Shown here piece by piece: positions 2,644 to 14,654 of a stretch of 64,000 nucleotides of DNA. The notes below the pieces were generated by a model. The model was not told where the DNA came from, ran no database searches, and worked only from the letters and a program-made list of their open reading frames with translations. This stretch comes from Nitrospirota bacterium (GTDB lineage: Bacteria > Nitrospirota > UBA9217): contig JAGVOT010000101.1 in assembly GCA_020052615.1 (NCBI GenBank), positions 57,592-121,591 on the forward strand, given 5' to 3'. Within the stretch, counting starts at the first letter, position 1. Each line of letters opens with the position of its first letter. A program made the translations under genes and the position numbers.

Positions 2644-2672
2644 TTGACAATATCGATCATCTTAGGTATAGT
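2644..2672 (+). promoter_or_regulatory. Sigma70-like promoter upstream of the envelope operon: -35 TTGACA (2644-2649), 17-nt spacer, -10 TATAGT (2667-2672).
   Basis: Consensus hexamers with optimal spacing. The first downstream start codon is at 2898, giving a ~220-nt leader. A 12-nt perfect palindrome AGCTCATGAGCT (2605-2616) and a second TTGACA (2618-2623) lie just upstream. Confidence 0.5.
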
Positions 2673-2897
2673 CGTTTCTCAGTCTCGATATCGTCGCCAG
2701 GTGATGGTCTGTTTCATCAGCCCTCACGTATAGAGAGAAGTGAATAGTACCTTGACTTATCCCGCTTCCTATGGAATTCTGAACGGGACACAAATGTTCA
2801 GTCGTTCTATGAGGGAGGTGAAACCTCGGCAAGCATGATCGTCCCAATATTAAGGAACTGATAACTAAATATTCGTCATTCTCAAAGGAGGTATAAC

Positions 2898-3752
2898 ATG
2901 GGCAGTGGAAGAAGAGTTCTATTCGTTTTATCAGTAGCAGCCCTCCTGGCATTTATGGGCGGCAGTGCGTTCGCCCAACTCGTGGGCACGGTAACGGACG
3001 TTGAAACCTCCGTAGGATCGTCAGGCAAGGTCGACTGGACCACGGGGGTGATCACCGCGGTCGGCATCGGCGCCCCCCCTGCACAGCCGGCGAACGCAGC
3101 GCAGGCCAGGGCCATGGCAGAGCGCGCGGCGCAGGTCGTGGCATACCGCAACCTGCTCGAAGCGGTGAAAGGCGTCCGTATTGATTCAACGACGACCGTC
3201 GAGAACTTCATGGTAACGAGCGATGTCATCCGCACGCAGGTCAGCGGGTTCGTACAGGGCGCCATGGTCATGGACAAGAAATACATGTCCGACGGGTCCG
3301 TCGAGGTCACGGTCGGTATGAAGCTGACTGGTGCGCTTGCTGATTCGCTTCTCCCGAAGACCCCCCCGGCGCAGCCTACGGGTATCGTAACGACGCCGGG
3401 TGTTGCTGGACAGACATTCACCGGTCTCATTGTTGACGCCCGCGGTCTTGGTATCAAGCCGGCAATGGCTCCCAAGGTCCTGAACGAAGACGGCAAGGAA
3501 GTCTACGGTTCGGCCTGGATCAACAGGGATTGGGCCGTCCGCGAAGGTATGGCGGGCTATCTGAAGGACCCGCTGCAGGCACAGCAGAACCCCCGCGTGA
3601 CCGATAAGCCGCTCCTGGTGAAGGCCATCAAGGCCTCAGGTGACGCACGGGTGGATATGGTGATCTCCAACGCCGATGCATCGATGATCCACGGCGCCAC
3701 GCAGAACCTGAGTTTCCTGGAAAAGTGCAAAGTCATCATTCTGGTGGATTAG
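2898..3752 (+). CDS. Secreted two-domain protein: N-terminal LPP20-like lipoprotein-family domain plus a conserved C-terminal domain (paralog A).
   Basis: Signal peptide MGSGRRVLFVLSVAALLAFMGGSAFA. The core GIGAPP...NAAQARAMAERAAQVVAYRNLLEAVKGVRIDSTTTVENFMVTSDVIRT is typical of the LPP20/FlgP-like fold. It is near-identical to the N-domain of 6498..7553 and similar to 13639..14550. The C-terminal GLIVDARGLGIKPAMAPKVL...RVTDKPLLVKAIKASGDARVDMVISNADASM is shared with paralog B. Confidence 0.55.
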   Translation: MGSGRRVLFVLSVAALLAFMGGSAFAQLVGTVTDVETSVGSSGKVDWTTGVITAVGIGAPPAQPANAAQARAMAERAAQVVAYRNLLEAVKGVRIDSTTTVENFMVTSDVIRTQVSGFVQGAMVMDKKYMSDGSVEVTVGMKLTGALADSLLPKTPPAQPTGIVTTPGVAGQTFTGLIVDARGLGIKPAMAPKVLNEDGKEVYGSAWINRDWAVREGMAGYLKDPLQAQQNPRVTDKPLLVKAIKASGDARVDMVISNADASMIHGATQNLSFLEKCKVIILVD

Positions 3753-3840
3753 GGCATCCCAGAAGGGATCATTTCCCGGCCTGCAGGCGGGAAGACCGGC
3801 AACGCTGTTGCCGGTATATATTATAGATGCGGAGGTTAGA

Positions 3841-4998
3841 ATGGTTACCAACATTAAGCGTCTCGCGGTACTGATGCTCGTGATCGTTGCGCTGGTCGCT
3901 GTGGGATGCGGTCCCAAAGCAGCGCCTTCGACGTCGGTACTGGATACTCCTGAATACCATTACCAGCAGGGGCTCAAGTTCCTGGATAAGAACCAGATGG
4001 ATGATGCCATGAAGGAGTTCCAGCGGGCGGTTGACCTTGACCCGAAGTCACCGCTTGGCTACATCGGCAAAGGTCTTACGTTCGGCAAGAAGGGCGATTT
4101 CAAGGCGGCTTTCGAGAACATGGAGAAGGCAAAAGATCTGGAGACGAAGGGGATCGAATCCCGTATCGGGATGATCCGTCTCCATAGCCTGCAGCGCGGC
4201 AAGAACTTCAGTAAGGAATGTGAGGGCGAGTTCAAGGCTGCCAATGAGAAAGAGCCGAACAACGCCCGTCTTCACTATTTCATGGGTATGGCATATAAAT
4301 CGGCATTGGATTTCGACAAGGCCGCAGGCATGTTCCGCACGGTCTTGGACCTGAACAAGGACTTTACGGGTGAGGCCAACGCCGAATGGTCCGTGATCCA
4401 GAAGATCCAGCGCGCTGCGCCGGGCACCGAGATCGGCAAAAAGATCGCTCTGATCGATAAGATCGACCGGGCCGATGTAAGTGCTCTCTTCGACCAGGAA
4501 CTGAACCTGGAAAAGCTCTTCACCAAGCGGGGCACCAAGAACTACGATACGAGCTTCAAGGCACCGACGGAGTCTTCGACGCAGTTCTCGCCGGAGACGA
4601 CAGTGAAGATGGATGCCGCTACGGACATCAAGGACCACTGGCTCAGGCCGAGCATCGAAACCATCCTGAAACTTCAGGTGCGCGGACTTGAGGCAGGTCC
4701 GAACCACAAATTCGATCCCGACAAGGATATCACCAAGGGAGAATTTTCCGTCATGCTCGAGGATATCCTGATCAAGGTCTCGGGTGATGAAAAGCTTGCC
4801 ACCAAGTACCTTGGCGCGACCTCACCGTTCCCTGATATCCGGAACGACCAGTATTTCTTCAGCGCGGCCATGACCGTGACCACGCGTAACTTCCTTGAGG
4901 CGGACAAGGCGACAGGCGAGTTCAAACCTGGCGATTCGGTGTCGGGAGCCGACGCGCTGCTGTCCATTCGTGAGTTCAAGAACCAGCTGAAATTCTGA
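3841..4998 (+). CDS. TPR-repeat lipoprotein with a C-terminal SLH (S-layer homology) domain.
   Basis: MVTNIKRLAVLMLVIVALVAVGCGP has a lipobox (VAVGC). TPR-like helical repeats follow: AMKEFQRAVDLDPKSPLGYIGKGLTF..., ARLHYFMGMAYKS. C-terminal HWLRPSIETILKLQVRGLEAGPNHKFDPDKDITKGEFSVMLEDIL fits the SLH consensus. RBS GGAGG sits 7 nt before the ATG at 3841; the track ORF begins at a TTG at 3808. Confidence 0.6.
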   Translation: MVTNIKRLAVLMLVIVALVAVGCGPKAAPSTSVLDTPEYHYQQGLKFLDKNQMDDAMKEFQRAVDLDPKSPLGYIGKGLTFGKKGDFKAAFENMEKAKDLETKGIESRIGMIRLHSLQRGKNFSKECEGEFKAANEKEPNNARLHYFMGMAYKSALDFDKAAGMFRTVLDLNKDFTGEANAEWSVIQKIQRAAPGTEIGKKIALIDKIDRADVSALFDQELNLEKLFTKRGTKNYDTSFKAPTESSTQFSPETTVKMDAATDIKDHWLRPSIETILKLQVRGLEAGPNHKFDPDKDITKGEFSVMLEDILIKVSGDEKLATKYLGATSPFPDIRNDQYFFSAAMTVTTRNFLEADKATGEFKPGDSVSGADALLSIREFKNQLKF

Positions 4999-5014
4999 TC
5001 CCCTGTGACAAGGC

Positions 5015-5049
5015 AGGCCCGCCCCTTTAACGGGGCGGGCCTTTTTCTT
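5015..5049 (+). terminator. Intrinsic terminator or attenuator hairpin inside the operon, between the TPR/SLH gene and the transglutaminase gene.
   Basis: AGGCCCGCCCC-TTTAAC-GGGGCGGGCCT followed by TTTTTCTT. The downstream ATG is at 5053, only ~4 nt after the U-tract. Confidence 0.6.
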
Positions 5050-5052
5050 CCT

Positions 5053-6435
5053 ATGCCGAATAAATTTTATTTTCCTTTGACCGTCCTTTTCATCCTTATC
5101 ACTGCGTCAGGCTCCCAGGCAGGTCTCACGGTGCTTGAGGGCGAACACACGGTTATCTACGATATTGTAAATCCACGCGGGGTCGCGTTCATTCCGGATT
5201 ACGCGAACGAATCCTTTGTCCAAAAGGTACTCAGCCAGGACGAGTTCAGCAAACGGGTTCAGGTAACATCAAAAATGGCCCCCATGAAGACGCGCGTCCC
5301 GTTTCCCGTTCCTTCCGGTATGGTCAGGGGATCGCTCCAACAATATCTCTTGCCTGAACGGGACCGTCAGTCCGGTGATCCATCGATCGTCAAACTTGCA
5401 CGTGAGCTGGTCCAGGGCAGCAACTATGCGCATGAGGCGGCGAACGCTATTCTCACCTGGATCGCCGATAACCTGACCTTTGACTCCAGCATTACCGTTC
5501 CCTCCGATGCATCGTCAGCGCTCAAATACCGAAAGGCATACTGCGTCGGCTATTCCAATCTTGCCGTGGCCATGCTGAGGGCTGCAGGCATCCCGTCGCG
5601 GGTGGCTCATGGATATCTGCCCCCGGGATACGAATGGGGATTTTCCAGAGAGTACTGGGGTGTCAAGGTGAATGACGGCGGTTTTCACGCTTACCTGGAG
5701 ATCTATTATCCCGATACGGGCTGGGTATTCACCGATGCCGAACATTCCCATCATTTTGTAGATCCCTTCCATATCATTCTCCGTCTCGACGGGATGGAGA
5801 TGCCCGGGGTCTACAAGGGAGGGTACCTTGACGTTGACAAGGCCACCTTTTTCACGATCTTCCAGGAAGAGGACCGGACGGTCATGGTGGATGAGCTGGC
5901 GCTTCCCAAACAGAAACGGCTTGGCCGCAGGATGAACAAGCGGCAGTCCTCAGCGCTGGTTTCCGGCACCGTGAACGATACATCGGGCAAGCCGGTCGTG
6001 AAGGGGACTGCGGTCCTCTGGAAGGACGGCCGCGGAACGCAATTTCCGTTCAACGACGGGCGGTATACCATCGCGGTCTCCAATCCGGGGAAATACCGTA
6101 TTGATGTCAAAGGCCCCGGTTTCGCCAAGGCGACCTATGAGGTCCAGATCGAACAGGGCAAGGTCTATCGGAAGGACTTTACTCTGGCCTCGGGCGGAGT
6201 GATCAAGGGGAAGGTTGTCGATGGCGCGGGAAAGGCCCTTCAGGAGGGAGATGTGTTCTACCGTGACGGGAACACCAGCTTTGGCGTGCCTGTCGACCGG
6301 GACGGCACCTACCGGATCGAAGGCCTGATACCGGGCCAATACAAGATCTCGGTCATGGTAGGGGATAAAAATGTGTCTCATCAGGTAAAGGTGGAGGCCG
6401 CTAAAGAGAGCGTACAGGATTTTGTCGTAAAATGA
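5053..6435 (+). CDS. Secreted transglutaminase-like (Cys-His-Asp core) protein with C-terminal carboxypeptidase-regulatory-like beta-sandwich repeats.
   Basis: Signal peptide MPNKFYFPLTVLFILITASGSQA. Transglutaminase-like core: KAYCVGYSNLAVAMLRAAGIPSRVAHGY...GFHAYLEIYYPDTGWVFTDAE. CarbopepD_reg-type repeats: SGTVNDTSGKPVVKGTAVL, IKGKVVDGAGKALQEGDVF, YRIEGLIPGQYKISV. Confidence 0.7.
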   Translation: MPNKFYFPLTVLFILITASGSQAGLTVLEGEHTVIYDIVNPRGVAFIPDYANESFVQKVLSQDEFSKRVQVTSKMAPMKTRVPFPVPSGMVRGSLQQYLLPERDRQSGDPSIVKLARELVQGSNYAHEAANAILTWIADNLTFDSSITVPSDASSALKYRKAYCVGYSNLAVAMLRAAGIPSRVAHGYLPPGYEWGFSREYWGVKVNDGGFHAYLEIYYPDTGWVFTDAEHSHHFVDPFHIILRLDGMEMPGVYKGGYLDVDKATFFTIFQEEDRTVMVDELALPKQKRLGRRMNKRQSSALVSGTVNDTSGKPVVKGTAVLWKDGRGTQFPFNDGRYTIAVSNPGKYRIDVKGPGFAKATYEVQIEQGKVYRKDFTLASGGVIKGKVVDGAGKALQEGDVFYRDGNTSFGVPVDRDGTYRIEGLIPGQYKISVMVGDKNVSHQVKVEAAKESVQDFVVK

Positions 6436-6497
6436 GCGTTCGCGTTCCAATCCGTAGTTTTATTGTTGTCATTTTCTGGAAGGAAATGGAGTGAAAA

Positions 6498-7553
6498 ATG
6501 CGTTACCGTCTGTTGCTCTCGTTCACGATGCTGTATCTGCTGCTGTCCGTGGCAATGGGCCACGCGCAGACCGCTAATCCGACCGATGCCTTGGAGACCG
6601 TTGGTCAGGGCATGATCAATTGGACCACCGGTGAGGTGTACGCGACGGGCATCGGCGCACCGCCGTCGAACGCGGTGAACCCGGCGCAGGCGCGTGCCAT
6701 GGCGGAACGGGCCGCGCAGGTCGTGGCGTACCGCAACCTCCTGGAGATCGTGAAAGGCGTCCGGGTGGACTCTGAGACGGTGGTCGAGAACTTCATGACC
6801 AAAAGTGACATCATCAGGACGAAGGTCGACGGCATCATCAAGGGAGCAATGCCGGTCAAGAAACAGTACCTGTCCGATGGCTCCGTTGAAATAACCGTGG
6901 TCATGCGCATGAAGGGCGACTTTTTGAATGCGGTGGTCCCGGAAACATTCGGAAGTACGACGCTCCCGCCTCCGCCGTTGCGTCCCGCTCCATCGGTTCA
7001 GGTCCCTGCGCCCCAGCGGCCGGCTCCCGCACCTCAGGCGCCGGAGAAACGGCCCGAACCGCCGCGGATAGAACCGGCCAAGCCCGCCCCGCAGCAACCG
7101 GAGAAGAAGCCTGAGCCGCCCAAGGTCGTACCGCCCCAACAGCCGCTACCGGAGAAACCGGCCCAGTTGCCCCCCGTCCCGGTTCCCGACCAGTCGACGA
7201 CGAAATTCAAGGGCGGGAAGGCAACAGGTGTGGTGATCGACGGGAGAGGTCTCGGCTTGAAGCCTGCGCTGCTGCCGAAGATCATCGACCCCCAGGGTCA
7301 GGAGATCTACGTGGGACAGGTGGTGGCGAGAACCAATGCCGTCGAGCAAGGCGTGGCTGGATATGCCAAGGACGTTAACGCTGCCGCCAATAACTTCCGG
7401 GTCACCGATAATCCGGCGGTCATCAAGGGCGTCCGCGCATCAGGTGCCGCGCGAACCGATATCATGCTCAGCCAGTCCGATTCCTCGATGCTGCGCGATC
7501 TGGGCAAAAAGGGGGATTTCCTCCAGTATTGCAGGGTCATAATCGTTTATTGA
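6498..7553 (+). CDS. Secreted LPP20-like two-domain protein with a ~90-aa proline-rich linker (paralog B).
   Basis: Signal peptide MRYRLLLSFTMLYLLLSVAMGHAQ. N-domain GIGAPP...PAQARAMAERAAQVVAYRNLLEIVKGVRVDSETVVENFMTKSDIIRT is almost identical to paralog A. Pro-rich linker: PPPPLRPAPSVQVPAPQRPAPAPQAPEKRPEPPRIEPAKPAPQQPEKKPEPPKVVPPQQPLPEKPAQLPPVPVPD. C-domain GVVIDGRGLGLKPALLPKIIDPQGQEIYVGQVV... is homologous to the C-domain of paralog A. Confidence 0.55.
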   Translation: MRYRLLLSFTMLYLLLSVAMGHAQTANPTDALETVGQGMINWTTGEVYATGIGAPPSNAVNPAQARAMAERAAQVVAYRNLLEIVKGVRVDSETVVENFMTKSDIIRTKVDGIIKGAMPVKKQYLSDGSVEITVVMRMKGDFLNAVVPETFGSTTLPPPPLRPAPSVQVPAPQRPAPAPQAPEKRPEPPRIEPAKPAPQQPEKKPEPPKVVPPQQPLPEKPAQLPPVPVPDQSTTKFKGGKATGVVIDGRGLGLKPALLPKIIDPQGQEIYVGQVVARTNAVEQGVAGYAKDVNAAANNFRVTDNPAVIKGVRASGAARTDIMLSQSDSSMLRDLGKKGDFLQYCRVIIVY

Positions 7554-7628
7554 TGGTTCCCCGTGACGTGAATAGGGCCTATCGGTGCTCATTCACGGAA
7601 AGATTTCTCAGGGTCGTAAAGGAGGTTT

Positions 7629-8393
7629 ATGATGAGATCGAAGATGAGAAAAATGCTTGGCATCGCAGCGGCAATAATGTTGCTCACGGGATTTTCCGCA
7701 GGATCCGCTTCTGCGGACGATTCCGCCGCCATCGTGACCAGGCTTGAGGGAAATGCCTCCGTTTTCACCAAGGGCAGAAAGGCCGCGACGCCGCTCAAGA
7801 AGAACGACAGGCTCAAAAAAGGGCAGGAAGTAAAAGTGGGGGAAAAATCGCGGGTTGAATTGAAATACCCTGATGGGACGGTCATGCGGTTCGCGGAGCG
7901 CTCTACCATCAAGATCGACGACATAACCTATGATAGCAAGACGCAAAGCAAGAAAGTAAAGGTCGACCTGGGAGGGGGCAAACTCTGGGCAAATGTGAAA
8001 AAACTGGTCACTCCTGATTCCAAAGTCGAGGTAAAGACCGTGAATGCCGTAGCAGGGGTCAGGGGTACGGTATACCGTGTCAATGTCGAAGCGGACAACA
8101 GCGCCATGGTGAAAGTCTATGACGGAACGGTCGCCGTGGCGGGCGTTCCGAAAGAAGCGGCAAAACCCTCGGGACAGTTTACGGCTCCGGTGCAGGTACC
8201 TGGACCGCAGCCGGTCCCGCCGCCCTACCATGAGGTTTCCATGGAGGAATGGACGGTGATCGTCAGGGCGATGCAGCAGATGACCGTGTCGCCCGAGGGG
8301 GTCGCGTCCAAGCCGCAGGATTTTACCCCTCAGCAGGATATGGATGATTGGGTGCAGTGGAACCAGGAACGTGATAAGCAATTGAGCTTCTAA
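7629..8393 (+). CDS. Secreted FecR-domain protein, without an adjacent ECF sigma factor.
   Basis: Signal peptide MMRSKMRKMLGIAAAIMLLTGFSAGSASA. FecR-like beta region: RLKKGQEVKVGEKSRVELKYPDGTVMRFAERSTIKID...GKLWANV...KTVNAVAGVRGTVYRV. A perfect RBS AAAGGAGG precedes the ATG. Confidence 0.55.
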   Translation: MMRSKMRKMLGIAAAIMLLTGFSAGSASADDSAAIVTRLEGNASVFTKGRKAATPLKKNDRLKKGQEVKVGEKSRVELKYPDGTVMRFAERSTIKIDDITYDSKTQSKKVKVDLGGGKLWANVKKLVTPDSKVEVKTVNAVAGVRGTVYRVNVEADNSAMVKVYDGTVAVAGVPKEAAKPSGQFTAPVQVPGPQPVPPPYHEVSMEEWTVIVRAMQQMTVSPEGVASKPQDFTPQQDMDDWVQWNQERDKQLSF

Positions 8394-8423
8394 GCAGGGA
8401 AAGTCGTTGCGCTCTAGTCGAAG

Positions 8424-8460
8424 GCCGTTCCGGTTGCAACCGGAACGGCCTTTTGTCTTT
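8424..8460 (+). terminator. Rho-independent terminator closing the envelope operon.
   Basis: Perfect hairpin GGCCGTTCCGGTTG/CAACCGGAACGGCC followed by TTTTGTCTTT. Confidence 0.8.
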
Positions 8461-8474
8461 GGTGACAATAACCT

Positions 8475-8536
8475 TGACAACCTTCCGATCGGCGTGGTAT
8501 AAAACCCTGCAATTGAAAATGGTTATCAAAATCATC
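8475..8536 (+). promoter_or_regulatory. fur promoter: -35 TTGACA (8475-8480), 17-nt spacer, -10 TATAAA (8498-8503). A candidate Fur box overlaps the transcription start region (8511-8536).
   Basis: Consensus hexamers. AATTGAAAATGGTTATCAAAATCATC is an AT-rich hexamer array resembling GATAATGATAATCATTATC, placed between the -10 and the fur ATG (8545), consistent with autoregulation. Confidence 0.45.
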
Positions 8537-8544
8537 TGAAGACG

Positions 8545-8994
8545 ATGCACAAAGCGACAGAACAATTATCGGTTTATCTGGCAGGGCAAGGGCTCAAGTC
8601 CACGCGGCAGCGAGACAGGATATTGGATGTCTTCGTTTCGGCAGGACGCCACCTCAGCGCAGAGGAGCTGTACCTCCTGATCAGGAAGACCGACAGGAGG
8701 ATCGGTTATGCCACGGTCTACCGGACGCTGAAACTGCTCGCGGGAGCGGGATTGGCCCATGAACGGCGGTTCGAGGACGGCATCACCCGTTTCGAGTATG
8801 ATGCCGCCGAAGGACACCATGACCATCTGATCTGCACCCGTTGCGGCAGGATCATCGAATTCGAGAACGAACAGATCGAGGATCTCCAGCTGCGTGTGGC
8901 GAAGAAGAACAGATTTCAGGTCCAGACCCACAAGCTGGAGCTGTACGGGCTGTGCGAAGGATGTCAATCAAAAAAAGGGAAAACAGAACTCTAG
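8545..8994 (+). CDS. fur: Fur-family metalloregulator.
   Basis: N-terminal winged helix: TRQRDRILDVF...LSAEELYLLI. Metal sites HHDHLICTRCGRIIEF and LCEGCQ (structural CxxC pairs). Confidence 0.85.
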   Translation: MHKATEQLSVYLAGQGLKSTRQRDRILDVFVSAGRHLSAEELYLLIRKTDRRIGYATVYRTLKLLAGAGLAHERRFEDGITRFEYDAAEGHHDHLICTRCGRIIEFENEQIEDLQLRVAKKNRFQVQTHKLELYGLCEGCQSKKGKTEL

Positions 8995-13638: not shown

Positions 13639-14550
13639 TTACGGTTGCAGATGGGATGACAAACCGCCCGGTCCGGTGAGCGGCAGTTCCAGTTCGACCT
13701 CGATCTTTCCACCGTCCATGTCTCGCTCCGCAGCCATCCGGTACCCCTGCAGATAGCCCTGGAGCTTTTGCGTATAGGTCTTTTCCCCGAGCGCGGTGAT
13801 AAACTTCTGGTCCGGCCCAACCGTGATCAGTTCTATGATCCTGAGCAGATTGCGCTCTGCATCGGCGACTGCGGCACGCTTGGCCATTTCCCGCTTCACG
13901 GTAGGCGTGGGGGCCTGTTTGGGAGGAAGGCCGATCCCTCGCGCCCGGATCTTTCTTGCGTTCCAGTCAACCCCCTCGATCGCTGTGATATACAGCAGTC
14001 GGATGTCGCGGGTCGCCCGCTGGTCATCGGAAACGCTTATTGCGACGGAATCATCGGCATATCCCGGAGAAGTGACCTGAATGTCATAGCTTCCCGCAGG
14101 AATGCCTTCGAACTCATACCTGCCTTCGCTTGAGGCATTGACCGAGGCCCGTTCCACACCTTCGGCGAAGAGCGCCACGCGTGTTCCCGGGGCGGCTGCT
14201 TTAATGGTGCCGGTTATCACCGCAGATCCTTTAGAAGGGACAAGCATGATGGGCGCCAGCGATGTCGTCTCCGCGGGTTTCACGACGATGCCCGAAAGAG
14301 CAAGGGGAAAGGGGGATGAGGGAGCGGTCACTTTGATATCATAGGCGCCTGCCGGTAGTGCTGCTCTGAATTTCCCGTCCTGCGCGTTCACCTCAATCAA
14401 CGCAGCGGTCTTGCCTTGCTGCATCACGGCGATGTGTATCCCTGCGGATGGCGGGACGACAGCGCCCTCGATCGCTCCTTCCTTTTGAGCGGGGCAGGCG
14501 GTCAGTGAAACAAGCAGAAAGATAGAACAGCAGATGGAAAAAGGACGCAT
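13639..14550 (-). CDS. Lipoprotein: two carboxypeptidase-regulatory-like domains followed by a C-terminal LPP20-like domain (paralog C).
   Basis: MRPFSICCSIFLLVSLTACPAQ has a lipobox (LTAC). An RBS GGGAGGT sits 5 nt upstream. CarbopepD_reg-like: GAIEGAVVPPSAGIHIAVM...GAYDIKV, ITGTIKAAAPGTRVALF...GSYDIQV. LPP20-like: ARGIGLPPKQAPTPTVKREMAKRAAVADAERNLLRIIELI. Confidence 0.55.
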   Translation of the reverse strand: MRPFSICCSIFLLVSLTACPAQKEGAIEGAVVPPSAGIHIAVMQQGKTAALIEVNAQDGKFRAALPAGAYDIKVTAPSSPFPLALSGIVVKPAETTSLAPIMLVPSKGSAVITGTIKAAAPGTRVALFAEGVERASVNASSEGRYEFEGIPAGSYDIQVTSPGYADDSVAISVSDDQRATRDIRLLYITAIEGVDWNARKIRARGIGLPPKQAPTPTVKREMAKRAAVADAERNLLRIIELITVGPDQKFITALGEKTYTQKLQGYLQGYRMAAERDMDGGKIEVELELPLTGPGGLSSHLQP

Positions 14551-14654
14551 GGTTACCTCCCGGTTCAGTATGCGCATCAGTATAGCACAAATCATCAGCT
14601 GCGGTCATCCTCCTGCCGGATGTTTACCGGATAAATGTCATCCCGTATATTCAC

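Follow-up and report, generated by a model that had tools for sequence, protein, structure and literature searches.

A conserved gene pair in a five-gene cluster of exported proteins from Nitrospirota, and its putative role as a wall-anchored periplasmic scaffold

A row of neighbouring genes that all appear to encode exported proteins raises the question of whether these proteins work together, and in which layer of the cell envelope. We address this question for five co-directional genes, designated A, T, G, D and F, that span positions 2898-8393 of a 64,000-nucleotide stretch of a Nitrospirota genome (contig JAGVOT010000101.1; this whole 64 kb stretch is called the window below). The remainder of the window is made up of ordinary chromosomal and housekeeping genes. 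An initial annotation, made from the letters and their translations, had read the five genes as a single transcription unit for a dedicated cell-surface or matrix assembly system. Our main finding is that A, which encodes a protein of two domains (D1 and D2), and T, which encodes a lipoprotein with TPR and SLH modules, appear to form the invariant core of the cluster in its relatives, and that the five genes are best explained as a pared-down form, specific to Nitrospirota, of an envelope cluster that is widespread. All five open reading frames (ORFs) start with an export signal when read by eye (AFA/Q for A, the lipobox VAVG/C for T, SQA/G for G, GHA/Q for D and ASA/D for F), in agreement with the initial annotation, and T is the only one of the five with a lipobox.

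Conservation of the neighbourhood in relatives

Gene order was compared in a synteny set of 80 loci from species-representative genomes and six loci obtained by exact protein look-up; ORFs were clustered, gene families were mapped back by tblastn, and 85 loci were surveyed for neighbours. The nearest relatives are metagenome-assembled Nitrospirota genomes. Gene T directly follows A in 27 of the 29 testable loci of the close clade and in 8 of 9 other Nitrospirota; among 39 loci of other phyla, mostly Desulfobacterota, it does so in 24, and it lies within 8 kb of A in 34. Of 23 close-clade loci, 19 have a FecR-domain gene, represented by F in the window, as do 11 of 18 loci from other phyla, and extra D1-D2 paralogs occur in Nitrospirota loci and at one locus of another phylum (L067). 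In Syntrophales-type loci the genes mutL-miaA lie between A and T, an arrangement that is itself conserved (L005, L058, L071, L073, L077, L080, L081 and L086). That the five are unrelated exported-protein genes brought side by side by chance is a reading to which we give practically no credence: it can call on the weakness of the LPP20 Pfam scores described below, but the A-T order is kept over two phyla, Nitrospirota and Desulfobacterota, and both the promoter and an internal terminator are conserved. The idea of a dedicated envelope system, for which the initial annotation had named synteny in relatives as the touchstone, therefore stands.

The other members of the cluster are less constant. 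Gene G, the transglutaminase-like gene, is confined to the close Nitrospirota clade, where it is present in 15 of 18 loci with full flanks, and it cannot therefore be the heart of the system; of the role first given to it, the gene and its intact triad are there, but its place is that of a clade-specific component and not of the core. The usual order in the close clade is A, T, G, D, a GNA1162-like gene, a CsgG-like gene and F; of the 18 full-flank loci, 12 contain CsgG and 11 the GNA1162-like gene. At locus L001 (14734-17110), for example, GNA1162-like/DUF4412 and CsgG-like genes separate D from F, where the window has a 75-nucleotide gap (7554-7628). Both genes are missing from the cluster in the window and in its nearest relatives L002, L008 and L010, and tblastn with the L001 proteins found no copy of either in the 64 kb. 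Desulfobacterota loci add a fusion of a GNA1162-like domain with a beta-helix, TPR-Amidase_3 and TPR-SpoIID proteins, FlgT_N-like and DUF4384 proteins, and CHASE2 cyclases; genes for SLT proteins and for GNA1162-like, CsgG and FlgT_N-like lipoproteins also sit in related clusters. CHASE2 adenylate/guanylate cyclase genes were seen in 12 of the 85 loci (L004, L038, L040-L042, L057, L061, L062, L074, L075, L082 and L085), and tblastn with CHASE2 family members found none in the window.

The CsgG-like neighbours bear directly on an explanation close to the one first proposed, namely that the cluster proteins are periplasmic accessories of a CsgG-type channel in the outer membrane, exporting or anchoring a surface polymer, with G cross-linking the product. 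The position of the GNA1162-like and CsgG-like lipoprotein genes between D and F in most sister genomes speaks for it, as does a cluster of CsgG and two lipoproteins that affects matrix phenotypes in Acinetobacter baumannii and was called widespread and of undefined role (bioRxiv 10.1101/2021.05.19.444899). However, the window and three relatives do without both genes, nearly all Desulfobacterota loci have A-T without CsgG, the would-be cross-linking gene is clade-specific, and a curlin-like or repeat-rich secreted substrate was found in no neighbourhood. We consider assembly or secretion of a surface matrix unlikely.

Table 1. Features of the cluster and of the related LPP20-like gene in the window
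Feature	Position	Strand	Description
Sigma-70-type promoter-like site	2644..2672	+	TTGACA, 17 nucleotides, TATAGT; ~225 nucleotides upstream of gene A
Leader motif GTGAATAGTACCTTGACTT	2739..2759	+	Kept in 7/8 aligned relatives
Gene A	2898..3752	+	Exported non-lipoprotein, two-domain Tp0624 D1-D2 type; D1 FlgP/Lpp20-like, D2 Tp0624-specific fold
Gene T	3841..4998	+	Lipoprotein (lipobox VAVG/C), TPR array and C-terminal tandem SLH module
Intrinsic-terminator-like hairpin and T-run	5015..5052	+	11 pairs, 10 of them G-C; between genes T and G
Gene G	5053..6435	+	Transglutaminase-like (Cys-His-Asp) enzyme, exported; two beta-sandwich domains of the CarboxypepD_reg type
Gene D (A')	6498..7553	+	Second D1-D2 paralog, 94-residue Pro-rich spacer between domains
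Gene F	7629..8393	+	Exported stand-alone FecR-domain protein, conserved C-terminal EEW...WVxWNxxRD segment
Terminator-like hairpin closing the cluster	8420..8453	+	15 pairs; followed by fur
Third LPP20-like domain	13639..14553	-	Unlinked lipoprotein (LTA/C) with two CarboxypepD_reg domains, by Pfam

Domains of the five products

Pfam bore out the initial domain calls, namely TPR and SLH in T, Transglut_core and CarboxypepD_reg in G, FecR in F and, below the cutoff, LPP20 in A and D. For the LPP20-type N-terminal domain, the Pfam scores (25.5 bits for A and 17.8 for D) fall short of the cutoff of 25.9; D1 of A alone matches the structure of Campylobacter jejuni FlgP with an E-value of 1.6e-11. 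A closer counterpart came from the comparison with solved structures, in which protein A matched Treponema pallidum Tp0624 across both domains (phmmer E-value 8e-5, query residues 35-284, chain residues 6-263); D1 and D2 are both present, contiguous, and superposable on the Tp0624 structure (PDB 5JIR). The duplicated module of the initial annotation consists of the same two domains, for which a crystal structure exists, and is not an unknown one. The product of gene A is, as far as sequence comparison can tell, a soluble periplasmic protein of Tp0624 D1-D2 domains. Its chain stops after D2, with no OmpA match by Pfam. In Tp0624, D1 and D2 have been described as an inseparable pair, always found together and with no function assigned to the pair; in treponemes they are fused to an OmpA-like wall-binding domain, an arrangement reported in treponemes only, and D1-D2-only proteins exist outside this group (PMC5104382).

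The D1-D2 family comprises 4910 clusters at 50% identity with E-values up to 0.001, of which 713 have E-values up to 1e-30. Among 65 members, a single one has a lipobox-like motif, and both A and D have signal-peptidase-I-type signals with no cysteine near the N-terminus; a family so rarely lipidated is ill served by the database name 'LPP20 family lipoprotein'. The only fusions seen in long family members are with further repeats of LPP20, with a Hint domain or with a domain of the trypsin type (P0173 and P0256 are fusions of D1-D2 with a Hint/intein-type or trypsin-like peptidase domain), and no fused wall-binding domain was seen among them. The profiles of D1 and D2 show no relationship (hhalign probability 2.6%), so that the C-terminal domain is distinct, as initially described; the same value led us to reject D2 as a diverged copy of D1.

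The likeness of D1 to FlgP suggests another explanation, in which the cluster encodes a flagellar-motor accessory, namely a disk or collar of the FlgP/FlgT type that includes a TPR scaffold and has counterparts in Campylobacter, Vibrio or spirochetes. The match to FlgP includes the region that forms the ring-building insert of that protein (PMC12222027), FlgT_N-like proteins are encoded in related clusters, and for Tp0624 itself two models have been put forward, of which one is a MotB-like role (PMC5104382). Nevertheless, the 85 neighbourhoods contain no recurrent flagellar gene family, the A family is non-lipidated, the extra domain D2 is present, and the insert of A is modelled as two helices, as in Tp0624, and not as the beta-hairpin of FlgP. 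A flagellar role is, in our judgement, distinctly improbable.

Paralogs A and D share both domains, with 53% identity over the N-terminal and 41% over the C-terminal one, as the initial annotation had seen. Its near-identical core of about 60 residues was mildly overstated: counted by hand on the alignment, about 21 residues in a row are identical and the wider core is about 73% identical. The Pro-rich spacer that it put at about 90 residues measures 94, with 33% proline; at the DNA level, imperfect repeats with a spacing of 51-57 nucleotides were observed in it at 7025-7156. No DNA repeats shared between A and D were found, so the duplication is old, and recent gene conversion between the two was rejected on the same ground. 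An orthologue of D was found in the close Nitrospirota clade. The third LPP20-like domain was also confirmed on the minus strand, fused to two CarboxypepD_reg domains; it is 32% identical to D1 of A (BLASTP E-value 2e-12), and tblastn detected no further copy of the cluster families in the window. Unlike A and D, this protein is a true lipoprotein, and its CarboxypepD_reg domain type recurs in the transglutaminase-like protein.

For T, the second member of the core pair, Pfam reports TPR and SLH, the latter scoring 23.0 bits over the full protein and 26.1 over its C-terminal part (cutoff 20.8). The profile of this C-terminal part matches the SLH structure of Bacillus anthracis Sap (3pyw) with an E-value of 9e-6, SLH was found by Pfam in 8 of 8 diverse family members (best E-value 1e-14), and the family alignment shows by eye three consecutive SLH-like repeats; in the first TRAE-like motif both Arg and Asp are invariant. 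The TPR part is modelled by AlphaFold2 with a predicted local distance difference test (pLDDT) score above 90.

The product of gene G scores 83.5 bits with Transglut_core and 71.3 bits with CarboxypepD_reg, of which it has two domains. The triad Cys180, His228 and Asp244 (numbering of the 476-residue ORF) is invariant in 21 orthologues, and structural relatives in the PDB are 6g49 and 3isr. This fold would fit a cysteine peptidase equally as well as a protein cross-linker, two activities that sequence does not tell apart.

Protein F (254 residues) has a cleavable signal and a FecR domain (Pfam 56.8 bits), with no other domain detected; NCBIfam gave sub-threshold matches to Lsa33 and LipL45, and a profile search for a solved structure returned chance-level matches alone. 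The family alignment spans both phyla, the C-terminal segment EEW...WVxWNxxRD included. A FecR domain, together with the fur-feoB and DtxR/FeoA-type genes that come next after the cluster in the close Nitrospirota clade and not elsewhere, might suggest iron-responsive signalling. This we regard as very improbable: F has neither a cytoplasmic anti-sigma domain nor a membrane span in addition to its cleavable signal, no Pfam match to a sigma factor or a TonB-dependent receptor was found within about 10 kb in two annotated relatives, and F stays with A-T in Desulfobacterota loci that lack fur-feoB. The best Fur-box-like 19-mer of the window (15/19, at 8515-8533) lies after the cluster terminator, in the interval before fur (8470-8545), which also holds a promoter-like TTGACA...TATAAA. 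At the cluster promoter no Fur-box-like site rises above background (11/19), and Fur control of the cluster was rejected on this score. The genes fur-feoB-dtxR/feoA look like a separate, self-regulated unit.

Promoter, leader and terminators

The sigma-70-type promoter of the initial annotation was recovered at 2644-2672, where 11 of 12 consensus positions are matched and neither TTGACA nor GGTATA varies among the 8 relatives aligned. The long 5' leader of 225 nucleotides contains the motif GTGAATAGTACCTTGACTT, which may act as a second promoter or as a binding site for a regulator. Rfam gave no match to the leader at the gathering score, and a relaxed threshold gave a chance-level match alone; a riboswitch was therefore rejected.

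A terminator-like hairpin at the end of the cluster is likewise present. It had been taken as the only one, but a hairpin with a T-run lies after gene T (5015-5042), and all 11 relatives examined have an equivalent GC-rich hairpin 3' of that gene, with stems that differ in sequence. The cluster is therefore not a simple one-promoter, one-terminator unit; a conserved internal terminator punctuates the five genes. Gene G most likely starts at ATG 5053, which abuts the T-run of this terminator with no visible ribosome-binding site; a longer ORF would begin at GTG 5005, and its 16 additional residues show no conservation in the orthologues. As the start codon abuts the T-run, the downstream genes probably depend on read-through, and A-T would probably be expressed above G-D-F, which fits A-T as the conserved core.

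A putative scaffold and its known counterparts

What might a core of a D1-D2 protein and a TPR-SLH lipoprotein do? We propose, tentatively and with somewhat less than even confidence, that the cluster encodes a putative wall-anchored periplasmic scaffold at the interface of outer membrane and peptidoglycan. The lipid anchor would fix T to a membrane, which is probably the outer membrane; the SLH repeats of T would grip peptidoglycan or a wall-linked polymer, and its TPR array would recruit the D1-D2 proteins, so as to form together the anchored scaffold. The fusion of D1-D2 to an OmpA-like wall-binding domain in one Treponema chain would follow the same logic. The spacer of gene D, about 25-30 nm if fully extended, could set D1 and D2 of this paralog at separate levels within the periplasm, the Cys-His-Asp enzyme G may trim or cross-link a component, and F may be an adaptor that reports to CHASE2-type sensors, with which exported FecR-domain proteins pair (PMC5192318). 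In sister lineages the scaffold would be joined either by lipoproteins of the CsgG-like and GNA1162-like kinds or by wall hydrolases fused to TPR (Amidase_3, SpoIID); neighbours of the wall hydrolase and TolB-N-like/CsgG-like lipoprotein kinds fit a place between outer membrane and peptidoglycan.

In a two-membrane bacterium the most plausible orientation for the SLH part of such a lipoprotein is towards the wall from the periplasmic side, and not towards an S-layer. The surface or S-layer anchoring that the initial annotation had read from the SLH domain thus gives way to a more plausible periplasmic placement, and no finding speaks for a surface or matrix product.

Several points weigh against the scaffold. 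The SLH part of T is modelled by AlphaFold2 with low confidence, and the fold matches of its TPR part are generic. A published survey of outer-membrane tethers found SLH and the pyruvyl-transferase CsaB to be practically absent in Gracilicutes, Nitrospirota included, and this rarity leaves a real gap as to the ligand of the SLH module of T, for which a pyruvylated wall polymer together with CsaB, or polyamine-modified peptidoglycan, would be the expected systems. The neighbourhood ties the cluster just as much to channels of the CsgG type, which may speak for transport instead of tethering, D1 is kin to ring-forming flagellar proteins, and the location, partners and ligand of the cluster proteins are all predictions. 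A more specific claim, that A and T are a previously unrecognised SLH-based, lipid-anchored connector between outer membrane and wall in Gracilicutes, which docks CsgG-like channels or wall hydrolases and gives the Tp0624 D1-D2 pair its first function, we put forward as doubtful.

The wall-anchored scaffold, if correct, would matter in several respects. Tp0624 D1-D2, whose structure has been available since 2016 without a function, gains a genomic context in the form of a conserved partnership with a candidate wall-binding lipoprotein, and A-T would repeat over two genes what Treponema fuses in one chain. The cluster also points to SLH-mediated wall attachment in Gracilicutes, where the tether survey had reported SLH/CsaB as practically absent. 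Finally, the family is large and uncharacterised, with its 713 clusters, and cultured Desulfobacterota carry the same core (Desulfosudis oleivorans and Desulfonauticus are examples of cultured carriers), so that the proposal is testable.

We came across no paper that treats the cluster as a system, in line with the view of the initial annotation that it was not a described one. All of its domains are known, including the crystal structure of D1-D2, and the cluster would be a variation on established wall-attachment and envelope-lipoprotein systems. The closest counterpart, Tp0624, has the same co-occurring D1-D2 pair as A, but carries an OmpA-like third domain in the same chain, whereas here the candidate wall-binder is the SLH module of the neighbour T; gene D differs from it further in the Pro-rich spacer between D1 and D2. 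From FlgP/Lpp20 (PF02169, SHS2-like fold), A is set apart by the lack of a lipid anchor and of a flagellar context, by a Pfam score just below the cutoff, by the fusion of D1 to D2, and by the predicted helical insert. The CsgG/GNA1162 (DUF799) cluster is represented by both of its genes inside the present cluster in most sister Nitrospirota loci; in A. baumannii it consists of CsgG and two lipoproteins only, with no D1-D2, TPR-SLH or FecR partner mentioned. The operon of a LysM-FecR protein and a CHASE2 kinase in Burkholderia (PMC5192318) offers an exported FecR protein without an anti-sigma part that is tied to wall binding; F differs from it in having no LysM domain. As for T, the tethers OmpM, SlpA and Pal are likewise membrane-anchored with a non-covalent wall-binding module, which in T is predicted. 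OmpM-type tethers are beta-barrels of Terrabacteria, whereas T would use a lipid anchor, and Pal binds the wall through an OmpA-like domain, whereas T would do so through its SLH module; in its make-up T thus resembles Pal in combining a lipid anchor with a wall-binding module, and CpoB in its TPR platform.

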